Source of the DNA: Pseudomonadota bacterium
Lineage (GTDB): Bacteria > Campylobacterota > Campylobacteria > Campylobacterales > Sulfurimonadaceae
Direction: 5' to 3'
DNA length: 64,000 bases
Assembly (NCBI GenBank): GCA_043797085.1
Contig: JAZDQA010000013.1
Location: 241,140-305,139 of the forward strand
Below the pieces are notes generated by a model, which was given only the letters and a program-made list of their open reading frames with translations, was not told where the DNA came from and did not search any database. A program made the position numbers and the translations under genes. Positions 2,776 through 21,648 of the stretch are shown piece after piece; the first letter of the stretch is position 1, and every line of letters begins with the position of its first letter.

Positions 2776-3945
2776 TCAACGCTCATGCAGTGATTCAGAG
2801 AACGTTTTCGTAACGGGTTTTGACAAATAGGTCAGGACACTGCGGTTGCCGGTGATAATATCGACTTGGGCGCTCATTCCGGGGGCTATGTCTATTTTTT
2901 TACCGGATTTAGAGATGAGCTGTGTTTGATCCAGCGCGATTTGCACTCTAAAGTACTGCTTGTCTCCCTGTTGTGTTTTTTCGGTCAAAGTATCGGGGCT
3001 GATGTATTTTACTTTTCCGTGAAAAATTCCATAAATACTGTAATCGTACGCATCGAGTTTAACGGCTGCTTTTTGCCCTTGTTTGATAAACGAGATATCC
3101 GACGGACTGAGTTTCGCTTCGATGATGAGCTCATCACCGGAAGGGACAAGCTCTAAGATCACATCACCCGGTCGTACTCTTGCCCCTTGTGTCGTTAAAA
3201 TAATATTTTTGACGATAGCATCCATTTGTGAAATAATCGTTGTTCGCTCCAAAGTAATAGAGCGGTCGGTTAGCTCTTGCTCTTTGGTGGAGAGCTCTTC
3301 TTCGGCTTTGGTCATTTCGGCTTGAGAGTCTTGGAAGTATTTATTTCTTTTGTTCGATATTTGCCCTTTTAAATCGGCGATTTGACGTTTTATACGGATA
3401 ATCTCCGTCGCACCAATATCGCCGTTTTTTAGCAAAGGAAGATTGAGATCCAGCTCATCCTGCGCCAGTTTTAACGATTCTTCCAAAGCGGATATTTCAT
3501 CATTGAGCGCTTGCTGGCGGCGATGAAATAAAGCGGTTTGATTATCAACAAACTCTGTATAGTTCTTTACCTGTTGGGAAAAAACCAGCGGCTTGCCGTA
3601 CACTTCCGCTCTGAGACGAACCAAGGCTGCTTGAAGTGCGGCCACTTTAGCACGGCTGTCATCATACGACGCTTGCGCTTGGGATTTTTCCAGAACGATG
3701 AGACGATCCCCTTTTTTAACATGCTGCCCTTCGTGAACGTAAATCTCTTCAACCACTCCGTCATTAGCCGATTGGATCTCTTGGGTTTTTGCTGTCGTTA
3801 TGACTTGCCCTTGGGCGTGTGAAATTTGGTCGATTTGTGCATACGATGCCCATGCGAAAAAAGGGACTATCACTAGGAATAATGAGCCGAATACAACCAC
3901 GAGAGGGTTTAGGCGTGTTATGTAGGGAAGAGTGTGTGATTTCAT
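2776..3945 (-). CDS. HlyD-family type I secretion periplasmic adaptor
   Basis: N-terminal TM helix, biotinyl-lipoyl-like V.EG..VKKGD, coiled coil, YDYSIYG and PGMSAQVDIITG.RSVLTYL motifs. Confidence 0.95.
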   Translation of the reverse strand: MKSHTLPYITRLNPLVVVFGSLFLVIVPFFAWASYAQIDQISHAQGQVITTAKTQEIQSANDGVVEEIYVHEGQHVKKGDRLIVLEKSQAQASYDDSRAKVAALQAALVRLRAEVYGKPLVFSQQVKNYTEFVDNQTALFHRRQQALNDEISALEESLKLAQDELDLNLPLLKNGDIGATEIIRIKRQIADLKGQISNKRNKYFQDSQAEMTKAEEELSTKEQELTDRSITLERTTIISQMDAIVKNIILTTQGARVRPGDVILELVPSGDELIIEAKLSPSDISFIKQGQKAAVKLDAYDYSIYGIFHGKVKYISPDTLTEKTQQGDKQYFRVQIALDQTQLISKSGKKIDIAPGMSAQVDIITGNRSVLTYLSKPVTKTFSESLHER

Positions 3946-6047
3946 TGTTTGCCCTGTGCGGTAGGTTTGAGTTGTTGCAACACTGCGTCGCGTGGTCCGT
4001 CCATCACGATTCCCTGCGGCGTCATGACGATAATACGGTTTACCAGTCCCAGCAATGCAGGTTTATGGGTCACTAAAATAAGGGTTTTATCCGCAGTGAT
4101 TTGTTGATGCAGTGCCGTTAAAATATTTCGCTCTGTCCCCTCATCCATGTTGGCAGTGGGTTCATCCAATAGCCAAACATTGGGAGACGCTAATATCATT
4201 CTCGTGATCGCAATCATCTGTTTTTGACCGCCTGAAACACTTTCTCCCCCTTCGGGAACAGGAGTGTCTAACCCTTGGGGGAGTGAATTGATAAGATGGA
4301 TTAATCCGGTTTTTCCGGCAGCTTCGATAATCTTATCATCATTGATCCCGACCAATCCCAGCAAAAGGTTATCGCGAAGGGTTCCTGAAAGGAGTTTGAT
4401 GTTTTGAGGAAGATACCCGATGGTTTCATTGAGTCGATTGCGTGAGATATGCTGGATGTCGATTCCGTTGATCAGTACGCTCCCCTCTTGAGGCATATAA
4501 AGCCCTGAGAGGATTTTTAACAGCGTTGATTTTCCTGAGCCAATGACTCCCAATATTGCGACTCGCTCACCCTCTTTGATCGTCAAGTTGGCAACTTTTA
4601 TGTTTGCCATATCTTTGCCATAGCCGAATTGAATGTTTTGGCACGAAAAGCTGGGGTTCATATTGACGGGACTCAAAGGGCGCTCAATCCCTTCGTTGTC
4701 GCTTTTGAGGGCATAGACGTTATCCAAATCTTTGACGGCAATTTTGGTTCGTCCCCACTGAACGAGGAGGTTTGGCAACATCGCGATAGGGGATAACACA
4801 CGTCCGGAGAGAATCGTAACGGCAATCAATCCCCCCATCGTCAGGGTATCGGTGGTACTTACCAAATACGCCCCCGTACCCACCAATGCCATATAGCTGA
4901 TTTGCTGTAAAAATGCCGCCATATAGTTGGAGAGTTCGCTGTAATGACGTATGGCTATATCATCATGGATTGCATCTTCTGTGAGGGCATTCCATCGGCT
5001 TAAAATGCTCCATCCTGCACCGGTTGCTTTTATGTTTTCCGCATTTTCGACAGTTTCAACGAGCAATCCCAGTTTTTTATGGGACGCCATCGACGAGGTT
5101 TGAGAAAGTTTTTCGATTTTTTTACGAAAAAGAGTACCGGTAATGATCGAAACCACTAAAAAGATCAAGGCAATCAAGCCCATAGACCAGCCGGAAATCA
5201 TCACAATAACCGCTAAAAAGATCATCGAAAAAGGAAAGTCGATAATCAAATATAAAGCAGCCGAGGAGATAAAACTGCGAACGGTACTGTAGCTTTGAAG
5301 CTGACCCGATAAGGTTCCGATACTTTTAGGAAGGGCATCGGAACGGATTTTTAAAAAGCGATTAAAGATATCATGTGAATAGGCTACGTCCATATTTTTC
5401 GAAGCATGATCGAGAATCGTTGCACGGGAAAGTTTGAGTACCATTTCTAAAAAGATGGCAATAAAGACTCCGATGCTCAAAGCAATCAACGTCGAAATTC
5501 CCTGTGTAGGAATAACGCGGTCGTACACTTGCATACTGTAAAAAGAGGTACCGAGTGCCAAGATGTTGATGCTCAAAGAGGCGATGGCGGCATGAATGAG
5601 TATCGGTTTTTGAGCGCGTGCCACTTCCATGAACATTTGGGTTGCCGATATTTTTTCAAGGCTGGAACGTTGCGATTTGATGGAGGTAAACAGTGTTTTT
5701 GCCGGAAAGTTTCTCTCGCGGCGAATTCCATTTACCCCGTCACTTTTCCATGACCCGTCGGCTTCGTGTTCGATGATGACCCGCATCCCCTCACCCGGTA
5801 TTAATGCCAATATCGGCAATGCCTCATGGGACAATGTTTTTGTCCAAAAAGGTTTTTTGAGATTAAACGTCTCAAAAAGCGTTTCGAAGAAAGCAAGAAT
5901 CGATTTATCGTCGATGGTCACCAATCGCTTTTCTAACGTCACAACCTCATACGAGGATAGTCTCGATGATGCGAAATGGGGAAGCGAGCAGTGCCCAGTA
6001 AGCCATTGCATATCTTCTCTAGCTTTATCCAGATGGGTATAGATCAT
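3942..6047 (-). CDS. Type I secretion permease/ATPase
   Basis: MQVYDRVIP, TM domain, Walker A GVIGSGKST, VSGGQ signature, LLDEPT. Confidence 0.95.
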   Translation of the reverse strand: MIYTHLDKAREDMQWLTGHCSLPHFASSRLSSYEVVTLEKRLVTIDDKSILAFFETLFETFNLKKPFWTKTLSHEALPILALIPGEGMRVIIEHEADGSWKSDGVNGIRRERNFPAKTLFTSIKSQRSSLEKISATQMFMEVARAQKPILIHAAIASLSINILALGTSFYSMQVYDRVIPTQGISTLIALSIGVFIAIFLEMVLKLSRATILDHASKNMDVAYSHDIFNRFLKIRSDALPKSIGTLSGQLQSYSTVRSFISSAALYLIIDFPFSMIFLAVIVMISGWSMGLIALIFLVVSIITGTLFRKKIEKLSQTSSMASHKKLGLLVETVENAENIKATGAGWSILSRWNALTEDAIHDDIAIRHYSELSNYMAAFLQQISYMALVGTGAYLVSTTDTLTMGGLIAVTILSGRVLSPIAMLPNLLVQWGRTKIAVKDLDNVYALKSDNEGIERPLSPVNMNPSFSCQNIQFGYGKDMANIKVANLTIKEGERVAILGVIGSGKSTLLKILSGLYMPQEGSVLINGIDIQHISRNRLNETIGYLPQNIKLLSGTLRDNLLLGLVGINDDKIIEAAGKTGLIHLINSLPQGLDTPVPEGGESVSGGQKQMIAITRMILASPNVWLLDEPTANMDEGTERNILTALHQQITADKTLILVTHKPALLGLVNRIIVMTPQGIVMDGPRDAVLQQLKPTAQGKQ

Positions 6048-7309
6048 TTCATTTCTCCGGATTCAAGTTTTATTTCTCCATTTTTTAACGCCAAGCGATA
6101 GGCAGATGCCACCAGTGTCGCTTTAATATCTGCCAGAGTATTTTTGTTTTGTGTGAGTTCTCGTGATGAGTTTACCAGATCAAGCCATTGACGTTTACCC
6201 GCAATAAAAAGACGGGTATAGGAGTCCAATACGTTTTGAGAGGCTTCTATGGTCTTGTTCATCCCATCGATACGATCCATCGAGGCATGATAATTATCGA
6301 AATCGAGCATCAAGGCATCGCTGAGCTCCCGTTCTTTGGTCAGCTTATCCGATTGGACTTGCAAAACCTTGGACTCGGCACTTTGGATACTCGACAATGC
6401 GGACAACCCTGCTCCCGGTGACATAGAGACAGCAACATAAAGTACATTATCGGTCGTAGCTTGATCGCTGTACATCGAGCCTCGCAGATGCTCTGCACGC
6501 AAAGAGACGTTGGGCCATATAACGGCTTCTGCTCTGGCTTTTTCTGCTTGGGCCGTTTTAATTTGCTCACTGATTTTTTTGAGGGAGGGATGGGTTTTTA
6601 TCATTTGATCCATCATTTGGTTAATAGAGGCTGTTTGTTTGATAATCTTAGTATTGCTAAACTCAACGGCACACTCCATCTTGGAACCTATGAGCAGTTC
6701 CAGTTGAGAGCGTGCGGTATTACGTTTTGATCTGGCAACGGTCAAATCTGCACTGATTTGAGAGAGACGGGATTTGATAAGCTCACTGTCTGCAACCGAT
6801 GAGACACCTGCTTCAATACGACGGTTTAACATTTGATCAAACACTTCAAGCTGTTTTTTTCCATCTTCCAGTGCAGCTATGCTTCCATCCGCTTGGACAT
6901 AGTTTTGCAAAACACGCAAGAGGTTTTCCATCAACACATACGCACTTTCATCCAAAGCATATTGGGATTCATTTTTACGAGATTGGGCAATATCAACCAT
7001 AGCATCGAGCTTGCCTCCCGTCCACAATGGCTGATCGAGACGTATCGTCGTCCCTGTCCGTCCAGAACCTTGGGATACATCCACCGAAGGGGTAGGATAA
7101 TAGTTCCACTTCGCCCCCTCTAACTGAGCATCGGCACCTTGGATGATGTAGCGTGAGGATTGGATACTGGGATAGGTTTTAAAACTGGCATTCATAAGTG
7201 TCTCGACACTGCTTATGCAGATATCGCTATTTCCGACACGGAGGGGAGTTTCTTGGGCATCACAGAGCGTTGAAAAAAAGATTAGAAAAATTCCAATAGC
7301 ATAATGCAT
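6044..7309 (-). CDS. TolC-family outer membrane channel of the T1SS
   Basis: Signal peptide, LDQPLWTGG, RLFIAGKRQWLDL; overlaps the ABC gene. Confidence 0.93.
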   Translation of the reverse strand: MHYAIGIFLIFFSTLCDAQETPLRVGNSDICISSVETLMNASFKTYPSIQSSRYIIQGADAQLEGAKWNYYPTPSVDVSQGSGRTGTTIRLDQPLWTGGKLDAMVDIAQSRKNESQYALDESAYVLMENLLRVLQNYVQADGSIAALEDGKKQLEVFDQMLNRRIEAGVSSVADSELIKSRLSQISADLTVARSKRNTARSQLELLIGSKMECAVEFSNTKIIKQTASINQMMDQMIKTHPSLKKISEQIKTAQAEKARAEAVIWPNVSLRAEHLRGSMYSDQATTDNVLYVAVSMSPGAGLSALSSIQSAESKVLQVQSDKLTKERELSDALMLDFDNYHASMDRIDGMNKTIEASQNVLDSYTRLFIAGKRQWLDLVNSSRELTQNKNTLADIKATLVASAYRLALKNGEIKLESGEMK

Positions 7310-7353
7310 ACATATAACCCTTTAAAAAAGCATATTGTACCGTAATGAGTAGA

Positions 7354-7372
7354 CTCTTCCGAAAAGGAAGAG
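7354..7372 (-). terminator. Hairpin after the adhesin gene, possible terminator/attenuator
   Basis: CTCTTCC-gaaaa-GGAAGAG, 7-bp stem, weak U tract. Confidence 0.4.
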
Positions 7373-7393
7373 CTGTTAAAAAGAGAGGAGTAT

Positions 7394-10300
7394 TTAGATT
7401 ACGGTATTAATACTATGCGTAAATGAGCTTACATCGCTACCATAGATACTTTGCAATGCTTGCGCATCATTACCTGGATTGTCGGTATAGGTGACAATCC
7501 AAGTTGCGCTAGGGGTATCAGTGATTGATGGATCGATACTAAGTGTTACATTATTGCCTAATACCGAAACTGCTGTAGCTACAAATTTCAGCAAAGCTGC
7601 TCCGTCAGTAAGATCAGGAGTAAGCGTTCCATCGGTTACATAAAACATACTATTTGGGGCATACATACCTTCATCTAATAATGAATTAAAAGTAATGTCA
7701 ATCGTACCCGTACTGGTGTGACCTACCACATCTGCAACAGGAGCGGTAATCAATGGTGCTTTCGTTTCTACTATGTAGTTACCGGTACTACCGCCAACAC
7801 CTGTATTCCCTGCCACATCGGTATACACACCTGCGAGCGTGATTGTATTTAACACATCTGCTGCTATTCCTGCAGTTGGGGCGAATGTTCCTGTATAGGT
7901 CACTCCGCCATCACCGCTAAAGAGGTTGTTAATTGTTCCGTTTGCACTAGATAAATTTAAATCACTTCCATCAAACCCTAGAACCGCTTCGCTAAATGTG
8001 AAAGTAACGATGGGAGCGTCTCCCGCAGTGACTACTGCATCGTTCATTGAGATAACAACCGTAGGTGCTTTCATATCTACGGCTTGTATCGACTGAAGGG
8101 CTACGGTGCTTGGATTACCATAGAAATCTGTGACTGCACCCGCAGCGACATCGACCGTTACATTCCCTTTAACACCCGCAGTAGGAGTTATATCCAACGT
8201 GTAGACGGAAGTGCTGACTGTAGTCAGTGCACCTGCCGGAGTCCCCCCTACAATTGTAATATCTTGGAGGGTAAAGTCTGTAACGGGTTCACTAAAAGTA
8301 AATGTATACGTCAAATTACCTCCGACGATGTTAGCAACAGCCGCCGCTTCATCGTCAGATATAGCTATAGTCGGAGCACGAGTATCGACATAATACGTAT
8401 AGGGAGTAGTTGTCGTACCGGCAAGACCATTGAGGTCATGATAATCACCAGCACCAACACTAAACACATTAGAGGTAAACTCTACGTTTGCACTTGCGGT
8501 AAAAGTTGCAGTCCAAACACGTGCATCAGCCGTAGATGCTAAAGCGCTTAGTGTTCCATTATTGAAATGAACAAGAAGATCTCTAACCTCCTCAGAAAAA
8601 GTAATAGTCACTAAAGAGCTTTGACCAATGCTTAAGTTTGGATTGTTAAAAAATATTTGTGTTACAGTAGGAGGAGTAACATCAGGCTTGATATAGGTGA
8701 AAGACGTAGCATCATTCCCTGCTAAATCTTGAATAGCTGGTGTTAAATCTGTGGTTACGTCTTTGTACACAACCCGAACACTCTCAAGATTTGTAAAATC
8801 ATCCGCTATAGCTTTTGGCATAATTAGCGTAACGGTATCACCTAACATGGAAACAGCTTGAACAGGGATAAGATGTGTATTGATATAAACATCAAAGCCT
8901 CCCGGATCCGACATATTTACCGCTTCCAGCGATGAATTAAGCGTAAAGGAGATAGTTTTATTAACGTAATCGTATATCCAATCATTGACCCCGTCAAATG
9001 TTGTATCCATGAGTAGCGGAGCTAACATATCTACTACCTGTACGGATGATGTGTCCGAAGCAATATTTCCAACATTACCCGCCACATCATGGTATACAGA
9101 CGATAGTACGCCTATTGTCATATTTCCTTCGTAACCAACTTCTGGCGTTACGCCAAGTGTGTAAGTCATACCATCCGGACTAGCCGTAAATGTTTTAGCG
9201 GTTCCGTGCGTTACGACAATATCTCCTGCCGTAAAGTCTTTGACCACTTCATCAAATTTAAACGTATAGAGGATATCGGCTCCATCCGCTTTTGACGTGG
9301 CATCACCATTGCTCCCATCCATGTTAGCGGTGACGTCTCCTTGATTGTTTGTAATCGTGAGTTTTGGTCCTGTAGTGTCAGTGGTAATTGCTTCGGTGTT
9401 GCTCGTTGCAATACTGACATTTCCTGCTGCATCACTCTGGCGCACTTGAATCGCACCAATCGAATACGCTGTATTATTGGAAAGGTTAAAAGTTGTTGCA
9501 CTTCCACTTGTCCACGTACCCCCATCTAAACTGTATTCCCACGTAGCTCCCGCTTCTATTCCTGACACTGTCATAGCTGAGCTACTTGTAATGTTATCGG
9601 TATTGTCTAGGCCTGTATCGTTAGCAGGTAAAAGATCAAGCGTTAATGCAGTTGGGGCTAACATATCGACAAGTTGTGATGAATTTGCGGCAAGGGATTG
9701 TGCGCTTCCTGTGCCAAGAGCTGCGCCTGCAGCCACACTCACGGCAACATTCCCTTCATACCCGGCAGTTGGGGTTACCACCAACGCATAAGTAATACCG
9801 CTACCGCTAAATGCTCCTTTGCCTCCACCGGTTACGGTAATGTCATCTGCGGTAAATCCTGTAACGGTATCGCCAAACGTAAAGGTATATGCAATAGACC
9901 CTCCTGCAATATTTGCCGTAGTTGAGGGTTCATCATCGCTAATAGTTAGAGTGGGCGCTGGCGGTGGGGTAGTGGCAGTGTTAACCGTATAGTTTGCACT
10001 TTGAGCTGACGTGCCTGCATTTCCTGCGCCATCGATATAGGTGCTCGCTAAGTTAATAACATTGGAAACATCTAATGAAATACCAGCCGTTGGCGTAAAG
10101 ACAGCCGTCCACGTAATGCCGCCATCAGCACTGACAAAAGTACTAACCGTCCCATTTTGGACCGTAATATCCGCATTACTAAATCCTGCTACCGCTTCAG
10201 AAAAAGTGATCGTGACGGTAGCCGTTTCTCCACTATTAAGTAAACTGTCTGAAAGCGCAATTGTTGCAGTAGGTGAAGTGGTGTCAGCCACAACTGCATT

Positions 10301-11209
10301 TAAATGCGCTGTTGCCGCTACCTCTGTAACCAATGTAACACCTGTAGGTGTTAATGCCGTTTGTAATGCAGGATCAAGCGCTGTTTGAACATCAATAACG
10401 GTAGTAATCAATGCAGCAGTAGCTGGAGCGATAGTGATCCCATTAGCTGCATTGCCATCACTATCAAGAGATTGCAAAAACTGGGCGATATTAACAACTT
10501 TTGTATCAGTAGTATTGGTTCGAAGTACACCCGCAATTTCCTGAATAGTGACAATATGATCCGCATTAATGTTAGCAGTATTAAACGTCCCGATCGTTGC
10601 CTGTCCTACTTTAAATGTTACTGTATCCCCTGCTTTATATGCGAACGATCCTAATGATCCATCAGCGAGCGTAATACCTGTAACACCCGTAAGTCCACTG
10701 CTCGTCGTATACGATACCCCCTGAACCAAGCTGTCAACTAAATTTGCGGTTAATGTTGTGGCTGCTGGAACTGTTGTCGTGCTTCCGCCGCCACCTCCAC
10801 CGCCAGCTGCAGCGGCAACTCCGCCCGCAACTGCGAGAATCCCTACACCCCACCATGCACTCGTCGACATAACAGGAGTAGGAGCTGCAACTGGGGCTAC
10901 GCTCACTGCGCCAAGCTCCATTGCGCCTGCTTGAGTAGTACTGTAGTTGGCGAAGGCGCCGCTTGAGTCAATGCCTGAGATTTGAACGGTTTGGTCATAC
11001 GAAGCATACTCATTCAAAATCACAGAAGGATCTGTTGCGCCGTCTGCAAAAATATGGAGATCTTTATTGACCATTTTTGTTGTTATCTTTTTTGGTGGTT
11101 GTCCTGTTGAGGCATCGACCAAAACAATTCTATCGCCGCTCATAACCATTTGTTGCGTAAGCTGTGTCACGCCATCTATTTTTTTGCCAACCACCATTGT
11201 TTTCATCAT
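7394..11209 (-). CDS. Ig-like (Big_13-type)/SwmB-repeat surface adhesin, probable T1SS substrate
   Basis: 1271 aa Thr/Ala/Gly/Val-rich; repeated TITFSEAV.GF...DITV..G units; no Sec signal; upstream of tolC. Confidence 0.88.
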   Translation of the reverse strand: MMKTMVVGKKIDGVTQLTQQMVMSGDRIVLVDASTGQPPKKITTKMVNKDLHIFADGATDPSVILNEYASYDQTVQISGIDSSGAFANYSTTQAGAMELGAVSVAPVAAPTPVMSTSAWWGVGILAVAGGVAAAAGGGGGGGSTTTVPAATTLTANLVDSLVQGVSYTTSSGLTGVTGITLADGSLGSFAYKAGDTVTFKVGQATIGTFNTANINADHIVTIQEIAGVLRTNTTDTKVVNIAQFLQSLDSDGNAANGITIAPATAALITTVIDVQTALDPALQTALTPTGVTLVTEVAATAHLNAVVADTTSPTATIALSDSLLNSGETATVTITFSEAVAGFSNADITVQNGTVSTFVSADGGITWTAVFTPTAGISLDVSNVINLASTYIDGAGNAGTSAQSANYTVNTATTPPPAPTLTISDDEPSTTANIAGGSIAYTFTFGDTVTGFTADDITVTGGGKGAFSGSGITYALVVTPTAGYEGNVAVSVAAGAALGTGSAQSLAANSSQLVDMLAPTALTLDLLPANDTGLDNTDNITSSSAMTVSGIEAGATWEYSLDGGTWTSGSATTFNLSNNTAYSIGAIQVRQSDAAGNVSIATSNTEAITTDTTGPKLTITNNQGDVTANMDGSNGDATSKADGADILYTFKFDEVVKDFTAGDIVVTHGTAKTFTASPDGMTYTLGVTPEVGYEGNMTIGVLSSVYHDVAGNVGNIASDTSSVQVVDMLAPLLMDTTFDGVNDWIYDYVNKTISFTLNSSLEAVNMSDPGGFDVYINTHLIPVQAVSMLGDTVTLIMPKAIADDFTNLESVRVVYKDVTTDLTPAIQDLAGNDATSFTYIKPDVTPPTVTQIFFNNPNLSIGQSSLVTITFSEEVRDLLVHFNNGTLSALASTADARVWTATFTASANVEFTSNVFSVGAGDYHDLNGLAGTTTTPYTYYVDTRAPTIAISDDEAAAVANIVGGNLTYTFTFSEPVTDFTLQDITIVGGTPAGALTTVSTSVYTLDITPTAGVKGNVTVDVAAGAVTDFYGNPSTVALQSIQAVDMKAPTVVISMNDAVVTAGDAPIVTFTFSEAVLGFDGSDLNLSSANGTINNLFSGDGGVTYTGTFAPTAGIAADVLNTITLAGVYTDVAGNTGVGGSTGNYIVETKAPLITAPVADVVGHTSTGTIDITFNSLLDEGMYAPNSMFYVTDGTLTPDLTDGAALLKFVATAVSVLGNNVTLSIDPSITDTPSATWIVTYTDNPGNDAQALQSIYGSDVSSFTHSINTVI

Positions 11210-11358: not shown

Positions 11359-11886
11359 TTACCGTTTGAGCAAAATATCTACACTCAAATCAACTTGATC
11401 GCGTACCGTTAGAAACATCATTGTGATCGGTTTGATTCCAAAATCGGTCATTTTTAGTGTACTTGCGGTTTTAATGTGTACTTTCGAGCCTTCTTCGATA
11501 ATTGTTCCATCAAAACTCAGCGGTTTAGTGACACCGTGCAAACTCATCGTCCCCTTGAGAGTATAAGCATTTCCCCCTTTGGCAATAACCTCTTTAACTG
11601 CAAAGACCGCTTTGGGAAAACTATCGGATTCGAGGGATTGCTGCATGTGTTCATCGCGCTTTTTATTATCACTGACAAGATCCCCCATCGAAACTTCAAT
11701 CGTCCCTTTTAAGCTGGACGGATTTGTGTCCATGACTAAATGCGACGTTGCCCGCTTGGCGATTGGGTCAATCGTGCTGTCTCCAAATACTTCCGTATGC
11801 GCTTTAATCACGCCGGAATCAAAACTCAAATTTCCTGCGAACATTGACGTCGCCAATATCATGGCGAGTGAACTAACTTTTTTCAT
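11359..11886 (-). CDS. YceI-family periplasmic lipid/isoprenoid-binding protein
   Basis: Signal peptide, SDNKKRDEHM, FPKAVF, GTMSLHGVTK, TDFGI motifs. Confidence 0.9.
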   Translation of the reverse strand: MKKVSSLAMILATSMFAGNLSFDSGVIKAHTEVFGDSTIDPIAKRATSHLVMDTNPSSLKGTIEVSMGDLVSDNKKRDEHMQQSLESDSFPKAVFAVKEVIAKGGNAYTLKGTMSLHGVTKPLSFDGTIIEEGSKVHIKTASTLKMTDFGIKPITMMFLTVRDQVDLSVDILLKR

Positions 11887-12836
11887 ACAGTTCTCCTAAA
11901 ATAAAATGGATAGATAAGGACAAAAATGCCCAAAAGAATGACAACAATCCAAAGTTCATGCGTCAAAGCGACTAAATTGGCTATCGACGATGCACCCCAG
12001 CCTACCCCTACCATAGTAATTCCAATCACTCGAACATCGCCCATCTGAGTCAACTCGCGGAACAATAAAACATTATAATATGAAATAACAATCGGATAAA
12101 TAATAGCGAGCAATACCGGCTGATGAGAGTAATAAGCAGCATAACTTAGGGCAAAAAGTCCCAATATTATCCCATTGCTTCGCATCAATGTTTTGCCATA
12201 ACGAAACGCCAAATAAACTCCCAAGAGATGCGATATAACAATCAGTGCCATATAGTGCCGCCAAACATCCATCTCATCTGAGCGGTTCAAGGTTTCAAAC
12301 AAAGCGGAATCTGCAAAAATCCACACCATCATCACTGCTATCACTTTAAAATTGAGGGGAGTATGGTGGCGATGTGAGCGCATAGGCAGGCTTGAAAAAT
12401 ACAGTGCTGCCATTGAAATACTGGGTAACATAATTGCTATGATTCCTCGCTGTTGGAACGGATACGTATAGAGGGCTGTTCCTACCGCGTACGAGAGAGC
12501 AAGTCCCAGTGCCAGATTTTTTCGGCTTTGTTCACGAAAGACATAGAGCATCAAAGGGGTTGTGTAGCCCACGATAAAGCCCAATACCAATAAAAGTCCC
12601 AGTGAATAATCGGGATAAAACCACGAAAGAATAATCTGTGCGATAAACATAAAAAAAAGCTCTTGCTTAATCCCATGATGCTTCCAATACGCACTCACAA
12701 TACTCCCAATCACCCCTCCAATAGGAAGCGTATAAAGATCGTGTATGTGAGAGTCAAACGCTCCCACGACTCCCGTTTGTGCAATCAGGAGATAATAAAG
12801 CAACTGAGAACTAAGAACAATGACGAGCATATTCAT
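11883..12836 (-). CDS. Polytopic membrane protein of unknown function
   Basis: About 10-11 hydrophobic segments in two halves; overlaps both neighbours. Confidence 0.75.
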   Translation of the reverse strand: MNMLVIVLSSQLLYYLLIAQTGVVGAFDSHIHDLYTLPIGGVIGSIVSAYWKHHGIKQELFFMFIAQIILSWFYPDYSLGLLLVLGFIVGYTTPLMLYVFREQSRKNLALGLALSYAVGTALYTYPFQQRGIIAIMLPSISMAALYFSSLPMRSHRHHTPLNFKVIAVMMVWIFADSALFETLNRSDEMDVWRHYMALIVISHLLGVYLAFRYGKTLMRSNGIILGLFALSYAAYYSHQPVLLAIIYPIVISYYNVLLFRELTQMGDVRVIGITMVGVGWGASSIANLVALTHELWIVVILLGIFVLIYPFYFRRTV

Positions 12837-14404
12837 TTACGCAAGCCTAAGAAATAAATCATGGCATACAGACCATCATAAAAAGCAATCAACAATGCCA
12901 ACTCATCCAAAATTCCTGCCATATACAAAGCGGCGAACGTCGAAGAGATGAGGAATCGGATGATGGCACTGAGGCTTGCGAGACGATCTTCATCCCCATG
13001 CAATCCAAACCAGTGAATCATCCCCGTCCCCATGACAAAGGCAAACACGATATACTCATACGTTGCGGTAAACGTAAACCCAAGCAAGCCAAAAAGCCAG
13101 CCCCCTGCGATCACAAGAATCAGCCCGCCAAAAGCGTCCCCTAAAAATCCCATCAAATGATAAATTTTTAACGGAGTATTGATAGGGATAATCAATCGGT
13201 CATAGAGTATTTTTGCGACTAAAACAACAATCATGACCCCGAAAATAGCCCTCATCATCAAAAATGGCTCAATACTTCCGCCAATCAATCCCGCTTCTAT
13301 AAGACCGGCGAGAGAAAGAGAGAGTGCCATTAAACTAATTAACAGAGCCCAGAGTGTCGCATACAATCGTTTAAACAGCGCCGGTAAAAGATGGTAGGCG
13401 ATAGAGAGAGCCATAAAAGCAACCCCTAATCCCATGGCGATATGGGCATGTCCCACGACCAAATCGTTGCGATGTATCAGCGCTCGAAGTTCAGGGATAA
13501 AAAGGATATTTCCCTCAATATCGACAAAGATAAACGCCGCAATCGATAGGATGAGATAGGGATTTGTTTTAAACTGTACCCCAGCATCCCGAAGCCAAAT
13601 CCACAGCAGCGGCAGATACAACAACGTCAAATACTGAAAAAACCACTCTTCGTTGTAACTCAATGGGTGGAAAAAATTACGTATTATCAGTGAAGTGACA
13701 TATCCCGCCAACGGAATCATCCACAGCCAGTGAAAGCGTGGTGCGAACGCTTTAGGTGCGGAAAGCTTGATGAGCAAATAATAAATCGGGAGAAGAGCGA
13801 AACTCATCCCCAGCGTATTGTCCCCATGAGGGCCTACGAGAGTTTTTTCCACCTGACCGTATTGGGGATTCATCAAAACTACCAAAGCGATGGGGGCGGC
13901 GATAACCGCTAAAAGCGATACATTCACCCACAGCGGACGTTTTTCATAACGCTTCAGTGCGTCCAAAAGTGCCAAAAGATAAAACAGCCCGCTAAAGGCG
14001 AGGAGAAAGTTCAACTGATAGGGAAAATCGTAAAATGGTAATCCCCGAATATTTCCAAAAAGAAGCGCCATACTCATAAAGAGTAAAAATACGTTCCAAA
14101 CGACGAAGTATCGCGCCAAATGTTTCAAACCGTTTTGACTCAAAACACCCTCTTTTTCAAACAGCGCAAAAGGCAACAATGAGAGAATAAGCGGGAAAAA
14201 ACCATACAACATTTGCGAAATATGGAGAGACCTGGCACGCTCAGGGGAAAGCAGGGTCATGGAAGCATCTAATCCTAACATCTCAACTGCGTACACTAAT
14301 CCCGTAAAGAGTCCTAAAAAGAGCCAAAACAAAAGAAGAGGGAGATTATCGTTTAAGAATTTTGACAATTTTTCCATCCTCCATTTCAATGATTGTATCG
14401 GCAT
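12833..14404 (-). CDS. Divergent heme-copper oxidase subunit I-like membrane protein (CcoN/NorB-like); start may be 14377
   Basis: RARSLH, GDNTLG...YY, H.NDLVVGHAH motifs in the order of CcoN RLRPLH, GHNAVG...YY, HYTDWTIGHVH. Confidence 0.72.
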   Translation of the reverse strand: MPIQSLKWRMEKLSKFLNDNLPLLLFWLFLGLFTGLVYAVEMLGLDASMTLLSPERARSLHISQMLYGFFPLILSLLPFALFEKEGVLSQNGLKHLARYFVVWNVFLLFMSMALLFGNIRGLPFYDFPYQLNFLLAFSGLFYLLALLDALKRYEKRPLWVNVSLLAVIAAPIALVVLMNPQYGQVEKTLVGPHGDNTLGMSFALLPIYYLLIKLSAPKAFAPRFHWLWMIPLAGYVTSLIIRNFFHPLSYNEEWFFQYLTLLYLPLLWIWLRDAGVQFKTNPYLILSIAAFIFVDIEGNILFIPELRALIHRNDLVVGHAHIAMGLGVAFMALSIAYHLLPALFKRLYATLWALLISLMALSLSLAGLIEAGLIGGSIEPFLMMRAIFGVMIVVLVAKILYDRLIIPINTPLKIYHLMGFLGDAFGGLILVIAGGWLFGLLGFTFTATYEYIVFAFVMGTGMIHWFGLHGDEDRLASLSAIIRFLISSTFAALYMAGILDELALLIAFYDGLYAMIYFLGLRK

Positions 14405-14981
14405 ACTCGGCTATTTTTTTATCATGGGAAGCGACCACAAATCCTGTCCCCTCGTGCGAAAAACGCTTGAACAATTCATACACACCCAACGCATTTTTCG
14501 TATCCAGGTTACCCGTTGGTTCATCGGCAAATACCACGGCGGGGCGATTTACCAAGGCTCGTGCGATGGCAGCGCGCTGACGCTCACCCCCTGAGACCTC
14601 ATCACTGTAACGAGCGGCTAAGCGCCCAATCCCCAAACTCTCCATCAGTGGCTCAACGCTGTCTTCATCCAAAGCAGAAAGGGCAATATTTTCCCGCAAG
14701 GTCAAATAGGAGATAAGATAATGAAACTGAAACACAAATCCGATGTTGTGCCGTCTAAACACATCAATATTTCCTAGCTCGCTGATGCCTTTTTCATCAA
14801 AGGTCACTGCACCGCTTGTGGGATTAAGGAGAGTTGATAGGATTGATAACAAGGTTGTTTTTCCGCTTCCGCTCTCTCCGATAATCGCCGTAAAACTCCC
14901 TGCTTCGATGGAGACATCAACGCCGCGCAAAACATGCTCAATCCCATAATAGTGCTCTATATTTTTGGCTTGGATTCTCAT
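14346..14981 (-). CDS. LolD/MacB-type ABC ATP-binding protein
   Basis: GESGSGKT, IGFVFQF, VSGGERQR, ADEPTGNLD. Confidence 0.95.
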   Translation of the reverse strand: MRIQAKNIEHYYGIEHVLRGVDVSIEAGSFTAIIGESGSGKTTLLSILSTLLNPTSGAVTFDEKGISELGNIDVFRRHNIGFVFQFHYLISYLTLRENIALSALDEDSVEPLMESLGIGRLAARYSDEVSGGERQRAAIARALVNRPAVVFADEPTGNLDTKNALGVYELFKRFSHEGTGFVVASHDKKIAEYADTIIEMEDGKIVKILKR

Positions 14982-16057
14982 GCACCGCCTCGCTGTATCA
15001 GCGTCATCGGATCAATACGCGCAGCATAAATAGCAGGGAGTAATGTCCCCAACATTGCCATGACAATCGAGACAATAAAGACTTTAAGGGCGAGAGAGAA
15101 GGTGATTTCACCGTTGATATACCCTTGAAATTTATCCGCGTGTTCGATCAGCTCCAACACCCCAAGCGACACCCCAAGGGCAACCGCAAAAGAGAAGAGG
15201 GCAATAATCAAGGTTTCCGCCAAAAGCTTTTTGATAATCACCCACGAAGAAAGTCCAATGGAGCGCATTATCCCAAACTCCGTTTTACGATCATTGACCA
15301 CCATACTCATCATGCTCACTATTCCCAAAATTCCCATTAAAAATGCCATCGCTCCAATCACATCCGAACTGGTTTTTATAATTTTGAACTGATTATAGGA
15401 ATCAATAAAACTATCCGTGGTTTTAGCTTCTATATCGGGATTAAGTCCGTTTATTTTTTCAATAAGGGGATCGCTTTGAGCCAAATCATCCAAACTTACC
15501 AAAAAAATCGAGGCACTTTTATGAAACAATACTCCGCCGTCATGTAAATTCATCACCACACCGCCATCTTCAAATCCGATACGGCTTTTAAACACACCGC
15601 TTACGGTGAATTTTTGCTTGGAGAGGATGATTGTTTTGGGATGTTTCAGGGTTTCATAGATCTTAGAACCCAGTATCACTTCCCCATTTTTTGGGGTAGA
15701 ACCTTGCAGTAAAGTATAACTTTTAAAACGGTTCTCGCTCACACCATAGATTCCCACAATAGGTAGAGGTTCGACGGGTGCAGCTCCTAAAATCAAAGCA
15801 CCTGCCTCACGCACACCCTCTATCCGAACAATCTCATCTACCATGGAACGGTTAATGTCACTAAAAAAAGTATCGGCGATCCCTTTTTGTGTGACGATAA
15901 TATCCCCATCCGTTTTGAGCATCGCAGAGTACATACTCACGACGCCCCCCGATATGGCGCTAATGAGAAAAATTGCCGCGATAGAGACACTCATGCTCAT
16001 AAAAATGAGTGCTGTCTTAAAGCGATTTTTCCGAAGCGCTTTAATCGGGGTTATCAC
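14978..16057 (-). CDS. MacB/FtsX-type ABC permease
   Basis: One TM, large periplasmic domain, three TM with R..EFGIMRSIG and PA..AARIDP. Confidence 0.92.
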   Translation of the reverse strand: MITPIKALRKNRFKTALIFMSMSVSIAAIFLISAISGGVVSMYSAMLKTDGDIIVTQKGIADTFFSDINRSMVDEIVRIEGVREAGALILGAAPVEPLPIVGIYGVSENRFKSYTLLQGSTPKNGEVILGSKIYETLKHPKTIILSKQKFTVSGVFKSRIGFEDGGVVMNLHDGGVLFHKSASIFLVSLDDLAQSDPLIEKINGLNPDIEAKTTDSFIDSYNQFKIIKTSSDVIGAMAFLMGILGIVSMMSMVVNDRKTEFGIMRSIGLSSWVIIKKLLAETLIIALFSFAVALGVSLGVLELIEHADKFQGYINGEITFSLALKVFIVSIVMAMLGTLLPAIYAARIDPMTLIQRGGA

Positions 16058-16512
16058 TGACTAATTGCCTGTTTTAGTTCTGTTGCGGTAGAGACAAATT
16101 CAATTCGAGTAAGGAAGTTACCCCGAAATTTCATCACGGTAATTTTTTCTTCTTGGGCAGGAAATCGCAATCCTTGTTCTTCATCACGAATCAGCAAAAC
16201 CGTATGGGCGTATTTTCGCATTTTGGGGAGAGCAAATGTTTCCGTAATAAAATTGGGCATTTGACTAATATCCGCAACAAATGCGGCATTATTTTTTTTC
16301 AAATAGCCCTTATCCAGCGTTGCCAAATACTCATTGACCGTCGCACCTGTCCCTTTTTCAAATGCCATAATCAACGTCTTTGGCATCGCTTTAAGTGTGG
16401 TACGTTTACCAAACTGATCTTCCAAATCCAAGGGCATAACTGACTGCCCTGTTTTATACGGCGCTCCAAAAAGGCTTAGTGCCAAGAGTGCGAATACTAT
16501 AACTTTTTTCAT
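16054..16512 (-). CDS. Secreted protein, possible Cys-less thioredoxin/redoxin-like fold
   Basis: Signal peptide, LEDQFGK and ADISQMP...FALPKM; first gene of the operon. Confidence 0.65.
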   Translation of the reverse strand: MKKVIVFALLALSLFGAPYKTGQSVMPLDLEDQFGKRTTLKAMPKTLIMAFEKGTGATVNEYLATLDKGYLKKNNAAFVADISQMPNFITETFALPKMRKYAHTVLLIRDEEQGLRFPAQEEKITVMKFRGNFLTRIEFVSTATELKQAISQ

Positions 16513-16686
16513 AACAATCCTTTCGTTAATTCATCCAAAGTGTACCCTAACAAGGGTAAATGATTATTTTTTACGAAGGATACAAAGAGATTATGAATTT
16601 TTGATGAAAGGCGAATTAACGGCGATATAAAGGTTAAATACAATAAAATCTCTTTGCACTATTTAAACTCAAACAATCAGGTACAG

Positions 16687-18963: not shown

Positions 18964-20079
18964 TTATTTATGCGTAATTGTCTTCAACATTTTTTCGATC
19001 TCGCCGTGCTGTTCGAGCGTTAGAACAAAACTTTCATCCATCATCTTGTCCAAATGGTTCATCTCGGTGAGGGTAATGCCTAACGGATCTTTTTTCGCTA
19101 CTTTAGCAATACCTGAAGTTACGGTGATATTATCGAGTTTTTTACCCGAATGTCGGACAAAATAAGTGAGAAAATAACCGCCCGTATGATCTTTTTCAAT
19201 GGCGACAACCGCCCGCTTAGCCTGAGAATTTTCAAACTGCACGCTTGGGACAATAGCGTTAAAATCCTCTATACTTACATATCCGATGTAGACTTTAGTA
19301 TAAATATCGTGATAACGCTGGGTCGCACTTTTTCGGAAAAAATCCCAATTGATGGGTTGCCCTCCCCGAAGAGAACGCAGCATCCATGATAACGTCGCAT
19401 AGTATTTAAAGGATGCGATTTTAATCTCTTCTGCGTGAGCAATCTTATCACTCTCGATACGTACCATCGGTGCTTTTGGTGCATTGGTACTGAGACTCTC
19501 CAAGAGATGCTGTGCACTGTACGCTTCCGTAAACCATACGCTGGCATACGGAGGCAAATCGTTCGTTCCTGTTGCACCTTCGTTGAGAACTAAAACCGCT
19601 CTGACGTTATAACGAGGAAATAACACTTCCAAAAGTGCCCGTTTCTTACGAAGCCGTTTTTTGAGACTCGTTGCCGATTTCACCAACGTCATTTCCATAA
19701 AATAGAGTTCTTTGTCGGTAAAAAGAAGCCCGTCAAATTCTCCGATTTCCTTGTGGCGGGCACGGTAAATAATCTGCCCTTTCCAGCTTACAGAGAGAGC
19801 ATCGCTTTGGGCATGAGTACGATTTTTGTGCGGTCCTTTAATAATGAAACTTTTGATTTCAGGCTCATTTGCCGCGTAACGGAGAAGTTTTTCGTAGATG
19901 TAGTTCTCATACACTTCTCCCTCAAACGAACGAAAAGCACTGACATACGATTCATCTTCCATCGTCTGCCCTTTGGCTTGGAGCGAGAGTAAATGAGCGA
20001 TATTGTAGTCGTAATAGAGGAGATTATCGCCTAAATCAGCGTCCCCATTGGGAATCACCTTGGAATTAATGGTTAACAA
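18964..20079 (-). CDS. Hypothetical protein with PD-(D/E)xK-like nuclease motif
   Basis: 371 aa ORF; GEVYE...GEFDGL...YFMEMT. Confidence 0.6.
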   Translation of the reverse strand: MLTINSKVIPNGDADLGDNLLYYDYNIAHLLSLQAKGQTMEDESYVSAFRSFEGEVYENYIYEKLLRYAANEPEIKSFIIKGPHKNRTHAQSDALSVSWKGQIIYRARHKEIGEFDGLLFTDKELYFMEMTLVKSATSLKKRLRKKRALLEVLFPRYNVRAVLVLNEGATGTNDLPPYASVWFTEAYSAQHLLESLSTNAPKAPMVRIESDKIAHAEEIKIASFKYYATLSWMLRSLRGGQPINWDFFRKSATQRYHDIYTKVYIGYVSIEDFNAIVPSVQFENSQAKRAVVAIEKDHTGGYFLTYFVRHSGKKLDNITVTSGIAKVAKKDPLGITLTEMNHLDKMMDESFVLTLEQHGEIEKMLKTITHK

Positions 20080-20167
20080 ATAGAGCCTTTTTGGATGTTT
20101 CTAGGCACATTTCTCTAATGCCCACAGTATTTTAGCGAAAATATGGGGAAGATGTTATAATTCCGGC

Positions 20168-20767
20168 ATGCAACCATTCACCCCAACCGATGATCAGATT
20201 CGCACCCAGTTTGTCACCTCTTTGATGAACTATTTCAAAATAGATGAAGATGTGTTCTTACGCTCTCATATCGATGAGCTCATCCGTCCCATCAGCACAG
20301 CTCGTTACAGTGAGTTTTTGCGTCGTCTTTCCAGTCGTGATTTTACGTATAAAACGGGAATTGAAAAAATTTCTCTTATCGCTCACGAACTGTATGAAGA
20401 ACAGCTCTCTCCTTTGGAGATGCAAGCGCATGAGCGAACGCAAAAGCTGTATGCACTCATGTATGATTTGCGTCGAAACATCACGGAAATCAAAAACAGC
20501 GAAAGCAGTGCTGCCCAACGATTCGAAAATGTCCGTTTTACCTCGATCAAACATGCCGACTCCACCGAACCTCTTTTGGATTCACTGGACATTGACGTTA
20601 TTCGAATTCTCACAAAACGATGGATTTACGATTATGTTGCGAATGATCGCGGACTATTTGAAGCACGAGTGGAACACGAATACCTCAACTTGTTAATCGA
20701 ACAAGAACGATTGGCAAGACAGCCTCTCATCGCGAAAACCACCAAAAAAGCGCTAAAATGCTCATGA
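20168..20767 (+). CDS. Hypothetical helical protein, coupled to the replication-like gene
   Basis: 199 aa ORF overlapping the next gene by 10 bp. Confidence 0.7.
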   Translation: MQPFTPTDDQIRTQFVTSLMNYFKIDEDVFLRSHIDELIRPISTARYSEFLRRLSSRDFTYKTGIEKISLIAHELYEEQLSPLEMQAHERTQKLYALMYDLRRNITEIKNSESSAAQRFENVRFTSIKHADSTEPLLDSLDIDVIRILTKRWIYDYVANDRGLFEARVEHEYLNLLIEQERLARQPLIAKTTKKALKCS

Positions 20768-21648
20768 TAGCCATCCCCTCTTCTCTCATCGACCGTAATG
20801 ATTTGAGCCTCTTAGAACGCGCGCTTCTTCCTCTGATTATTCGCCACGGTCTCATTTGGGGAGATAAACCAAAAGCTCTCTCTGCCTCATTTTTAGCCGA
20901 ACTTTTACGCCACAGTCCTCGTGAAGTGGTCGAAGCACTGGATGCATTGGTAACAAAAAAAATACTCAAAACAACCCGTGAAAAAACGGCGAACGGCGTG
21001 ATGATCCTCTACGTCCTTGAGCCCATTGCTGCTTCCATTGCAAGCCCTTCTTTGGCACTTACCGCATCGCAGTACACCGACAGCAACTATTATCTCAACC
21101 TCTCCAACGATTTTTTCGAAGAACTCCACGCCTATGCGCTCGAAGTATGTGATCGAGAGGGTCTGCGACGGGAGCTGTTTGATGATTTCAATCTCTATCA
21201 ACGCTCGCAAAACCGCCGATCGTTTGACTGGTTTGCCGAGTTTGAGCGGTGGTGTCGCCGTGAAGTAAGCTCCAATGCACCCGCAATCGCCAATCCAAAG
21301 CAAGTCGAAGAGACAAAGCCAAGCACTCAAGAATTCGAGATGGCGCAGTATTTTATCCGTCGTCTCTCCTCCATCGACCCGCAGTTCCAAGAGCCGTTTG
21401 ATGTGATGAGCTGGGCTGCACAGATTAAACTTTTGAGTGACACAGGAGGGTATTCCCTGCTTGAAATCAAGGCAGGAATTGATTGGCTCTTTAGCAGTAA
21501 AGGAGACTGGTTCCGTCCCAATGTCCCTGATGCCTATCATTTGAGAAAACACTTCAAACGGCTCATCTCTAACACCCGAAGTTTCCGAGACGGAGAGACA
21601 AAACTCCCCGATGGCATCAATATTTTCGATATTATCGGGCGGGAATAA
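20758..21648 (+). CDS. Phage replication-initiator-like protein (wHTH, DnaT-like middle, lambda-O-like C-terminus)
   Basis: LAELL..S...V..AL..L..K HTH; F..Y......DW.A.F..W.RR; WA..IKLL....YS..EI...IDW.....WF..NV.....LRKHF..L. Confidence 0.6.
   Translation: MLMIAIPSSLIDRNDLSLLERALLPLIIRHGLIWGDKPKALSASFLAELLRHSPREVVEALDALVTKKILKTTREKTANGVMILYVLEPIAASIASPSLALTASQYTDSNYYLNLSNDFFEELHAYALEVCDREGLRRELFDDFNLYQRSQNRRSFDWFAEFERWCRREVSSNAPAIANPKQVEETKPSTQEFEMAQYFIRRLSSIDPQFQEPFDVMSWAAQIKLLSDTGGYSLLEIKAGIDWLFSSKGDWFRPNVPDAYHLRKHFKRLISNTRSFRDGETKLPDGINIFDIIGRE

Follow-up and report, generated by a model that had tools for sequence, protein, structure and literature searches.

Six histidines form the defining core of the heme-copper oxidases, and in the C-family enzymes a cross-linked tyrosine is located six residues before the HH position. 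The available text of the 2024 heme-copper survey notes this migrated tyrosine of the C-family and describes gNOR as the first family in which even a single one of the six histidines is replaced (Murali et al. 2024, PMC11214002). YceI proteins belong to a different setting: their structures mostly contain octaprenyl compounds or ubiquinone-8, and their usual partner is a di-heme cytochrome b561, which is proposed to recharge YceI against lipid peroxidation, according to the accessible part of the source (PMC9113575). Here we describe a CcoN-like protein encoded next to a YceI gene in a 64,000-nucleotide stretch of a Sulfurimonadaceae genome (contig JAZDQA010000013.1 of GCA_043797085.1, positions 241,140 to 305,139 of the forward strand), called the window below; all coordinates are positions in it unless a locus is named. 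The protein has the oxidase fold and the three heme-ligand histidines, and lacks the three-histidine copper set.

The homology of the CcoN-like protein to the heme-copper oxidases is well beyond chance. The Pfam COX1 model matches it at 6e-8, slightly below the curated cut-off, and the curated ccoN model gives an E-value of 8e-7 and 28.3 bits against a cut-off of 583, which is thus not reached; a Pfam family search across the host genome did not pick up the gene itself, and a PDB search with the single sequence returned no match. A profile built from 90 family sequences matches one sequence in the PDB, the cbb3 subunit CcoN 6xkw_n. The AlphaFold model has a predicted local distance difference test score (pLDDT) of 87.9, and all seven Foldseek matches at E<=0.001 are cbb3 CcoN. 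When the model is superposed with VIA-align, NorB and CcoN tie (Z 23.5-25.4, root-mean-square deviation ~4 Å over ~375 residues, model residues ~8-408). The 12-helix fold of the catalytic subunit is therefore present and, at the sequence level, so are the three heme histidines of helix II and of the helix X HxH. The open reading frame encodes 523 residues, with Met10 as the start in most homologues. Beyond about residue 408 the model predicts four further helices (411-441, 449-469, 472-495 and 501-521), which have no Pfam match. The membership of the oxidase superfamily and the roughly four additional C-terminal membrane helices, both claimed in the initial annotation, are thus borne out.

The register of the ligand positions was set by aligning the protein with reference families and with the CcoN encoded in the host genome. 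Ligand counts refer to 209 distinct family sequences (211 rows), with gaps excluded, in a set weighted towards Sulfuricurvum. The motifs RARSLH (His61), GPHGDNTLG (His193, Asp195), GYVTSLIIRNFFHP and DLVVGHAH (His319, His321) are all present. The three histidines in RARSLH and DLVVGHAH are invariant (Table 1), and the protein is predicted from these motifs to bind two b hemes. At the copper site, the helix VI histidine is replaced by aspartate, with another histidine two residues upstream, and Ile241 and Arg242 are aligned with the missing HH pair of helix VII. An HH dipeptide occurs in the helix VII stretch in none of 207 sequences. Position 241 is isoleucine in 142 of 206 sequences, tyrosine in 22, histidine in 19 and leucine in 10. 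His246 might wrongly be taken for a ligand, but this position is histidine in only 158 of 206. These ligand assignments agree with those first made from the single sequence, and no intact three-histidine CuB/FeB site was found in the family alignment. Tyr235, six residues N-terminal of position 241, occupies the position of the C-family cross-link tyrosine; the cross-link pair is nevertheless incomplete, as the histidine partner is an aspartate. The AlphaFold model is silent on the geometry of the old copper site because residues 186-195, including His193 and Asp195, have pLDDT <50, and helix VI begins at residue 197 in the model.

Proteins of this kind are often labelled in databases as ordinary cbb3-type O2 reductases, a reading to which we give hardly any credence. 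The three-histidine copper set is absent, the score of 28 bits is far from the ccoN cut-off, the operon of this clade is devoid of CcoO, and a real ccoNOQP cluster is present in the genome.

The operon context, which the initial annotation had not seen, points to the function of the CcoN-like protein. The counts that follow are from 81 regions, comprising 80 loci and the window, several of which are short contigs. The gene is encoded together with a type VII ABC transporter, an MFS-fold protein and a YceI-family protein (Table 1). An oxidase-fold heme protein would thus take the place of cytochrome b561 beside YceI. We tentatively favor a role for the CcoN-like protein as a non-respiratory di-heme redox module that acts on an isoprenoid lipid, with the ABC transporter removing this lipid from the membrane and delivering it to YceI. 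This reading is based on the heme histidines being invariant and the three-histidine copper set being absent in ~205 family members, on the retention of the operon and the co-occurrence of the MFS gene, on the prenyl synthase and CcoO found in the sister operon described below, and on the isoprenoids present in most YceI structures. Electrons would enter at the low-spin heme (His61/His321), donated in Opitutales by a CcoO-type cytochrome c and in Campylobacterota, whose operon is without CcoO, likely by the quinol pool. They would then move to the high-spin heme (His319), where a distal pocket with His193, Asp195, Tyr235 and Arg242 instead of copper would reduce or oxidize a prenyl lipid, candidates being quinones and lipid peroxides. 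From the inner membrane, the MacB/LolCDE-type transporter would take the product to the periplasmic YceI; LolCDE is known to load LolA. The likely purpose would be envelope protection under a two-component stress signal.

Table 1. Features of the operon and of the CcoN-like protein, in window coordinates.
Feature	Position	Strand	Remarks
CcoN-like heme-copper-fold protein	12833..14404	-	12-helix core (~residues 10-408) and 4-helix C-terminal extension
His61, aligned to low-spin heme b ligand of helix II	14222..14224	-	202/202
His193-Gly-Asp195	13820..13828	-	His193 206/207, Asp195 207/207; Asp195 is the replaced helix VI copper histidine
Tyr235 to Ile241/Arg242	13679..13702	-	Tyr235 205/206, Arg242 205/206; 241/242 is the position of the lost HH pair
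His319-Ala-His321, aligned in helix X to the ligands of heme b3 and heme b	13442..13450	-	203/203 each
Four-helix extension	12836..13180	-	conserved Asp423, His464, Arg483, Asp510
TTCAT-N6-TTCAT direct repeat, candidate response-regulator box	16593..16608	-	upstream of the operon
152-residue protein, first operon gene	16054..16512	-	signal-peptide-like N-terminus, no known family; 52/81 regions
MacB/LolCE/FtsX-type (type VII) ABC permease	14978..16057	-	76/81 regions
LolD-like ABC ATPase	14346..14981	-	family-model matches
12-helix MFS-fold protein	11883..12836	-	fold prediction; 79/81 regions
YceI-family lipid-binding protein	11359..11886	-	Pfam YceI 3e-20; 75/81 regions

A search among cluster representatives gave 74 matches, including a tail of distant full-length proteins that led to a sister family. 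This family is large, and its named members are Opitutales. It matches the CcoN-like family by profile at 98%, the four-helix extension included, and Atlas agrees. The three heme histidines are again invariant in 224 sister sequences. At the helix VI position, in the motif GGATG(A/H/T/S)S, the sister proteins have alanine (129 of 224), histidine (63), threonine (16) or serine (8), and a partly conserved histidine follows helix VII in 187 of them; some members may therefore retain part of a metal site. Gene counts were made on 55 loci longer than 3.5 kb, some of them near-duplicates, from 80 metagenome loci. The ATPase is found in 53, the permease in 49, the four-helix unit in 46 and YceI in 36. 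The four-helix extension is here a separate small gene or a fusion. An MFS homologue is present in 41 loci (34 with CxxCH), a farnesyl- or geranylgeranyl-diphosphate (FPP/GGPP)-type synthase in 34 and a response regulator in 18. The MFS homologue matches the MFS protein of the window at 93% by profile, and has a CcoO-like domain fused to it or following it, often with a second cytochrome c. This CcoO, like the operon context in Campylobacterota, had escaped the initial annotation. The sister operon is the strongest clue to the origin (a CcoNO pair) and to the cargo (an isoprenoid) of the system. No plasmid homologue of the sister protein was found.

Acidobacterial operons annotated as cbb3 may belong here as well. 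According to the available text of Trojan et al. 2021 (PMC8407424), they consist of ccoN, an unknown gene and ccoO, and their transcription is weak and falls with O2 (log2 fold changes of -2.7 and -3.6 for ACP_0885). The quantitative PCR primers given there translate to LVIIAI, LCWWIV, LKAGKP and MAMAGF, and the distances between these motifs are compatible with the sister family. The motif HxAMAG occurs in 216 of the 224 sister proteins and in none of 20 reference oxidase and NO reductase rows. We infer that these acidobacterial genes probably belong to the sister family, and count their transcription pattern in favor of the di-heme redox reading.

Several observations weigh against the lipid-redox role. 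A polyprenyl synthase cluster is absent among the common neighbors of the operon in the 81 Campylobacterota regions, and the best polyprenyl synthase match of the host genome is located outside the operon. The distal residues differ by clade, with GPHGDNT invariant here against GGATG(A/H/T/S)S in the sister family, so that one shared catalytic chemistry is not evident. In addition, the His193/Asp195 loop is not resolved in the AlphaFold model, and the electron donor proposed for Campylobacterota is conjectural. The connection to the Acidobacteria is made by four short primers and by gene order, and the substrate, heme content and activity of the protein are predicted. The proposal that a copper-stripped cbb3 core has become a heme enzyme making or recharging an isoprenoid lipid, which would be delivered by the type VII ABC transporter and YceI, is possible but less likely than not.

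The distal residues could also be read as those of a stand-alone heme peroxidase or oxygenase, in which Asp195 and Arg242, with His193 and Tyr235, would provide distal acid-base catalysis and destroy H2O2 or lipid peroxides with no handover to YceI. DyP peroxidases have such a distal acid-base Asp/Arg pair, and all four residues are newly fixed at the old copper site (counts in Table 1). We regard this as unlikely, since the sister family has neither the aspartate nor an invariant arginine there, yet has the same operon, and the geometry of the loop cannot be read from the model. The lack of any distal catalytic residue common to both clades would fit a catalytically dead scaffold or sensor instead, whose hemes would bind O2, NO or CO, or report the redox state, and thereby control the MFS or ABC transporter, the cargo being unrelated. 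The strict co-occurrence with the MFS-fold protein is in keeping with this. Nevertheless, the newly invariant distal residues in Campylobacterota and the cytochrome c kept in the sister clade fit turnover better, and a sensor is rather improbable.

Heme itself could be a cargo held by the CcoN-like protein, in which case the ABC transporter would export heme or a prenylated heme, and the prenyl synthase would supply a heme O/A-type tail. HrtBA is a heme exporter; the type VII permease is of HrtB-like size, a two-component system lies beside the operon in Arcobacteraceae and Opitutales, the direct-repeat box is upstream, and the copper-site residues would be free to vary between clades. The permease has 15 matches among solved structures, with the MacB/Lol/YtrF/FtsX group at 2e-20 to 2e-9; the weakest, at 7.7e-5, is PDB 7w78, which we take to be HrtB. 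As a heme prenyltransferase is also absent among the annotated neighbors, and the retained CcoO implies electron transfer, heme trafficking appears quite improbable.

In a tree of 42 rows, from which one unrelated row had been dropped, both families group with the C-family with support values of 95/91, subject to a long-branch warning, and are separate from cNOR and gNOR. A smaller, quickly made tree (22 rows, sister family omitted) did not decide between CcoN and cNOR. A C-family origin of the CcoN-like family is likely. Kinship with gNOR is unsupported; gNOR is placed on the opposite side of the tree. By analogy with gNOR, the protein might reduce or detoxify NO in an unconventional way, at a non-heme metal site rebuilt from His193, Asp195 and a carboxylate. 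The available text of the 2024 survey reports an aspartate at the same helix VI position in gNOR (PMC11214002), NorB and CcoN tie as structural matches, and the smaller tree leaves the placement between CcoN and cNOR undecided. We consider this a poor candidate: the HH pair is kept in gNOR and absent in all 207 sequences here, denitrification genes are absent among the common neighbors, a separate norCB is found in the genome, and the lipid-handling neighbors would be left unexplained.

The HH pair is also missing from two other CcoN-like proteins. One (P0192) forms a fusion with CcoO and an additional cytochrome c, and the other (P0181) branches with divergent C-family enzymes, which suggests that the copper site was lost more than once. 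Another weak COX1-like family of ~425 residues (L197:4119-5396 and L198:4100-5371), from five genomes of one family, has no helix X HxH in the alignment and is probably an HCOH-type group.

The homologue search yielded 589 matches among 7999 scored candidates; 211 loci were confirmed among species genomes, and 80 of these were fetched. Carriers are Sulfuricurvum, Sulfurovaceae, Sulfurospirillum and Arcobacteraceae, with Arcobacter, Malaciobacter, Poseidonibacter and Sulfurospirillum among the cultured ones. In an even sample of the phylum the gene is present in 19 of 301 Campylobacterota genomes, and the MFS-fold gene is present in the identical 19, although related genomes are not independent. 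The gene is absent from the genomes searched of the two largest families of the phylum (0/90 and 0/124). The ratio of nonsynonymous to synonymous substitution rates against seven close homologues is 0.056-0.079, indicating purifying selection. One metatranscriptome contains near-identical contigs over three short gene pieces at a depth of ~4, which were not counted as DNA carry-over is possible.

The host genome encodes ccoNOQP ~60 kb from the CcoN-like gene, and norCB on another contig. A full-strength COX1 match at the level of CcoN was found in 17 of 18 other carrier genomes, the remaining one being a draft. Given these matches in the other carriers, and ccoNOQP and norCB in the host, the CcoN-like protein is no substitute for respiration. 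The family-wide loss of the copper ligands, the invariant heme histidines, the purifying selection and the normal cbb3 and cNOR elsewhere in the genome all agree with the non-respiratory di-heme offshoot that had been proposed, a protein predicted to bind heme and to have no O2 or NO activity.

The gene set of the operon is maintained, while gene order varies between loci. The MFS-fold neighbor has 317 residues and 12 predicted helices, and matches MFS transporters. Common neighbors in addition to those of Table 1 are a metallo-beta-lactamase-fold hydrolase (46/81) or a metallophosphoesterase (19/81), and the Arcobacteraceae operons have an additional CusRS-like two-component pair that scores under the model cut-offs. 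The absence of ccoO, ccoP or norC next to the gene in the window, as first described, was confirmed with the list of open reading frames and with family-model scans. No c-type cytochrome (CxxCH protein) lies inside the operon in the 81 regions; CxxCH proteins are found near it in 17, with true ccoO/ccoP directly upstream in two. In loci L015 and L020 the operon comes directly after a true ccoNOQP cluster. A 613-residue open reading frame with CxxCH and without an NCBIfam match lies directly downstream of YceI at L065:6833-8674. The MFS-fold gene is in two pieces ~900 bases apart at G070:C1:1010071-1011925. A 748-residue open frame in G091 was considered as a gene fusion and rejected, as it reflects an overlap with the ATPase gene. 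A redoxin-like nature of the 152-residue protein, suggested by eye, was likewise discarded, since no Pfam family was matched consistently by 16 members and their profile had no PDB match.

After removal of eight regions that do not start an operon, the TTCAT-N6-TTCAT repeat is found upstream in 40 of 66 regions, compared to 0.24 in shuffles. Promoter and terminator scans remained at chance level, and no defense-system match was obtained. A shared lipid-modification regulon is unsupported, as the EptA and LtaS-like genes of the host have no such repeat upstream. The yceI mutant of Arcobacter butzleri concerns a different locus, in which yceI adjoins cusA in the available text (PMC12811638). The repeat also precedes a thioredoxin-like gene, followed by DUF3570/ApbE-like flavinylation cluster genes recognized by eye (G000:C12:113793-116455), and these genes may share a regulator with the operon. 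At G000:C12:7084-7804 a second YceI (66% identical) is preceded by the broken 3' end of an MFS-fold gene; this is a remnant of a second operon copy, between MqnE-like and GlnD-like genes. In L163 an intact operon is likewise located beside GlnD-like and MqnE genes. A menaquinone link of the operon is possible from these two cases. The operon of L163 is preceded by a glycosyltransferase, a lipid-A-biosynthesis-like membrane protein and an ArnT-like gene, assigned by eye (L163:1321-4311).

In the window, a type I secretion cluster (3942-11209), with an ABC exporter, a TolC-like protein and a 1271-residue Big_12 repeat protein, separates YceI from the usually following hydrolase gene, which is located at G000:C13:235373; a 2513-residue protein lies beyond. 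On the other side, three unannotated genes (18964-21648; 371, 199 and 296 residues) are repeatedly found next to the operon in loci from Sulfuricurvum (35, 26 and 25 of the 81 regions), and the 371-residue protein has no Pfam match.

The CcoN-like family belongs to the known heme-copper superfamily, and its operon appears undescribed. The ligand pattern is not described in the available part of the 2024 survey, whose datasets may bear on the family (PMC11214002), and a literature search, outside which most subscription papers fell, gave no description of the family or the operon. A conserved family with both heme sites but no copper set, encoded in a lipid-transport operon, would represent the reuse of an oxidase scaffold outside respiration: an undescribed heme-copper branch, in which a respiratory enzyme would have been drawn into a lipid pathway in two or more phyla. 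It would also offer a testable route by which YceI proteins acquire and recharge isoprenoid cargo. If the acidobacterial genes are members of the sister family, the unexplained silence of their 'cbb3' at low O2, as reported in the accessible text (PMC8407424), would be accounted for. CcoN-like genes are often labelled as cbb3 subunit I, and on the lipid-pathway reading they would be miscounted as high-affinity oxidases in genome surveys.

The HCOH families and NnrS, reportedly treated by Pei et al. 2014, are said to be oxidase-fold proteins without the full six-histidine set, most HCOH families keeping two histidines and one heme. The CcoN-like family may be included in those HCOH groups; from most of them it differs in keeping three heme histidines. 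It resembles cNOR NorB (PDB 4xyd, 3o0r) in fold (Z 25) and heme ligands, but has no HLWVE motif, no HH pair and no adjacent NorC, and lacks the FeB set of three histidines and a glutamate (HxxxE, HH) of cNOR and qNOR. With gNOR, as described in the available text (Murali et al. 2024, PMC11214002), it shares the aspartate in place of the helix VI histidine, whereas gNOR derives from the B-family, retains the HH pair and includes a cupredoxin-fold subunit, features that the CcoN-like family does not share. In common with cbb3 CcoN (PDB 3mk7, 8smr, 6xkw) are the 12-helix fold, the three heme histidines, the helix VII tyrosine position, His311 and Glu297 of the HxxD and EG motifs, and the CcoO domain of the sister operons; the helix VI aspartate, the missing HH pair, a shorter loop before helix VI, the four extra helices, and an operon that in this clade has lipid-transport neighbors instead of CcoO/CcoP set it apart. 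A functional parallel is with the YceI lipocalin system BcnA/LcoA, where, in the accessible text (PMC9113575), YceI is encoded with a predicted di-heme membrane protein, as YceI is with the CcoN-like protein here. By this analogy, it is possible that the CcoN-like protein does the same job as cytochrome b561, recharging a carried isoprenoid, with an oxidase fold in place of the b561 fold. The operon further includes a type VII ABC transporter and an MFS-fold protein, to which the Opitutales version adds a prenyl synthase and CcoO.

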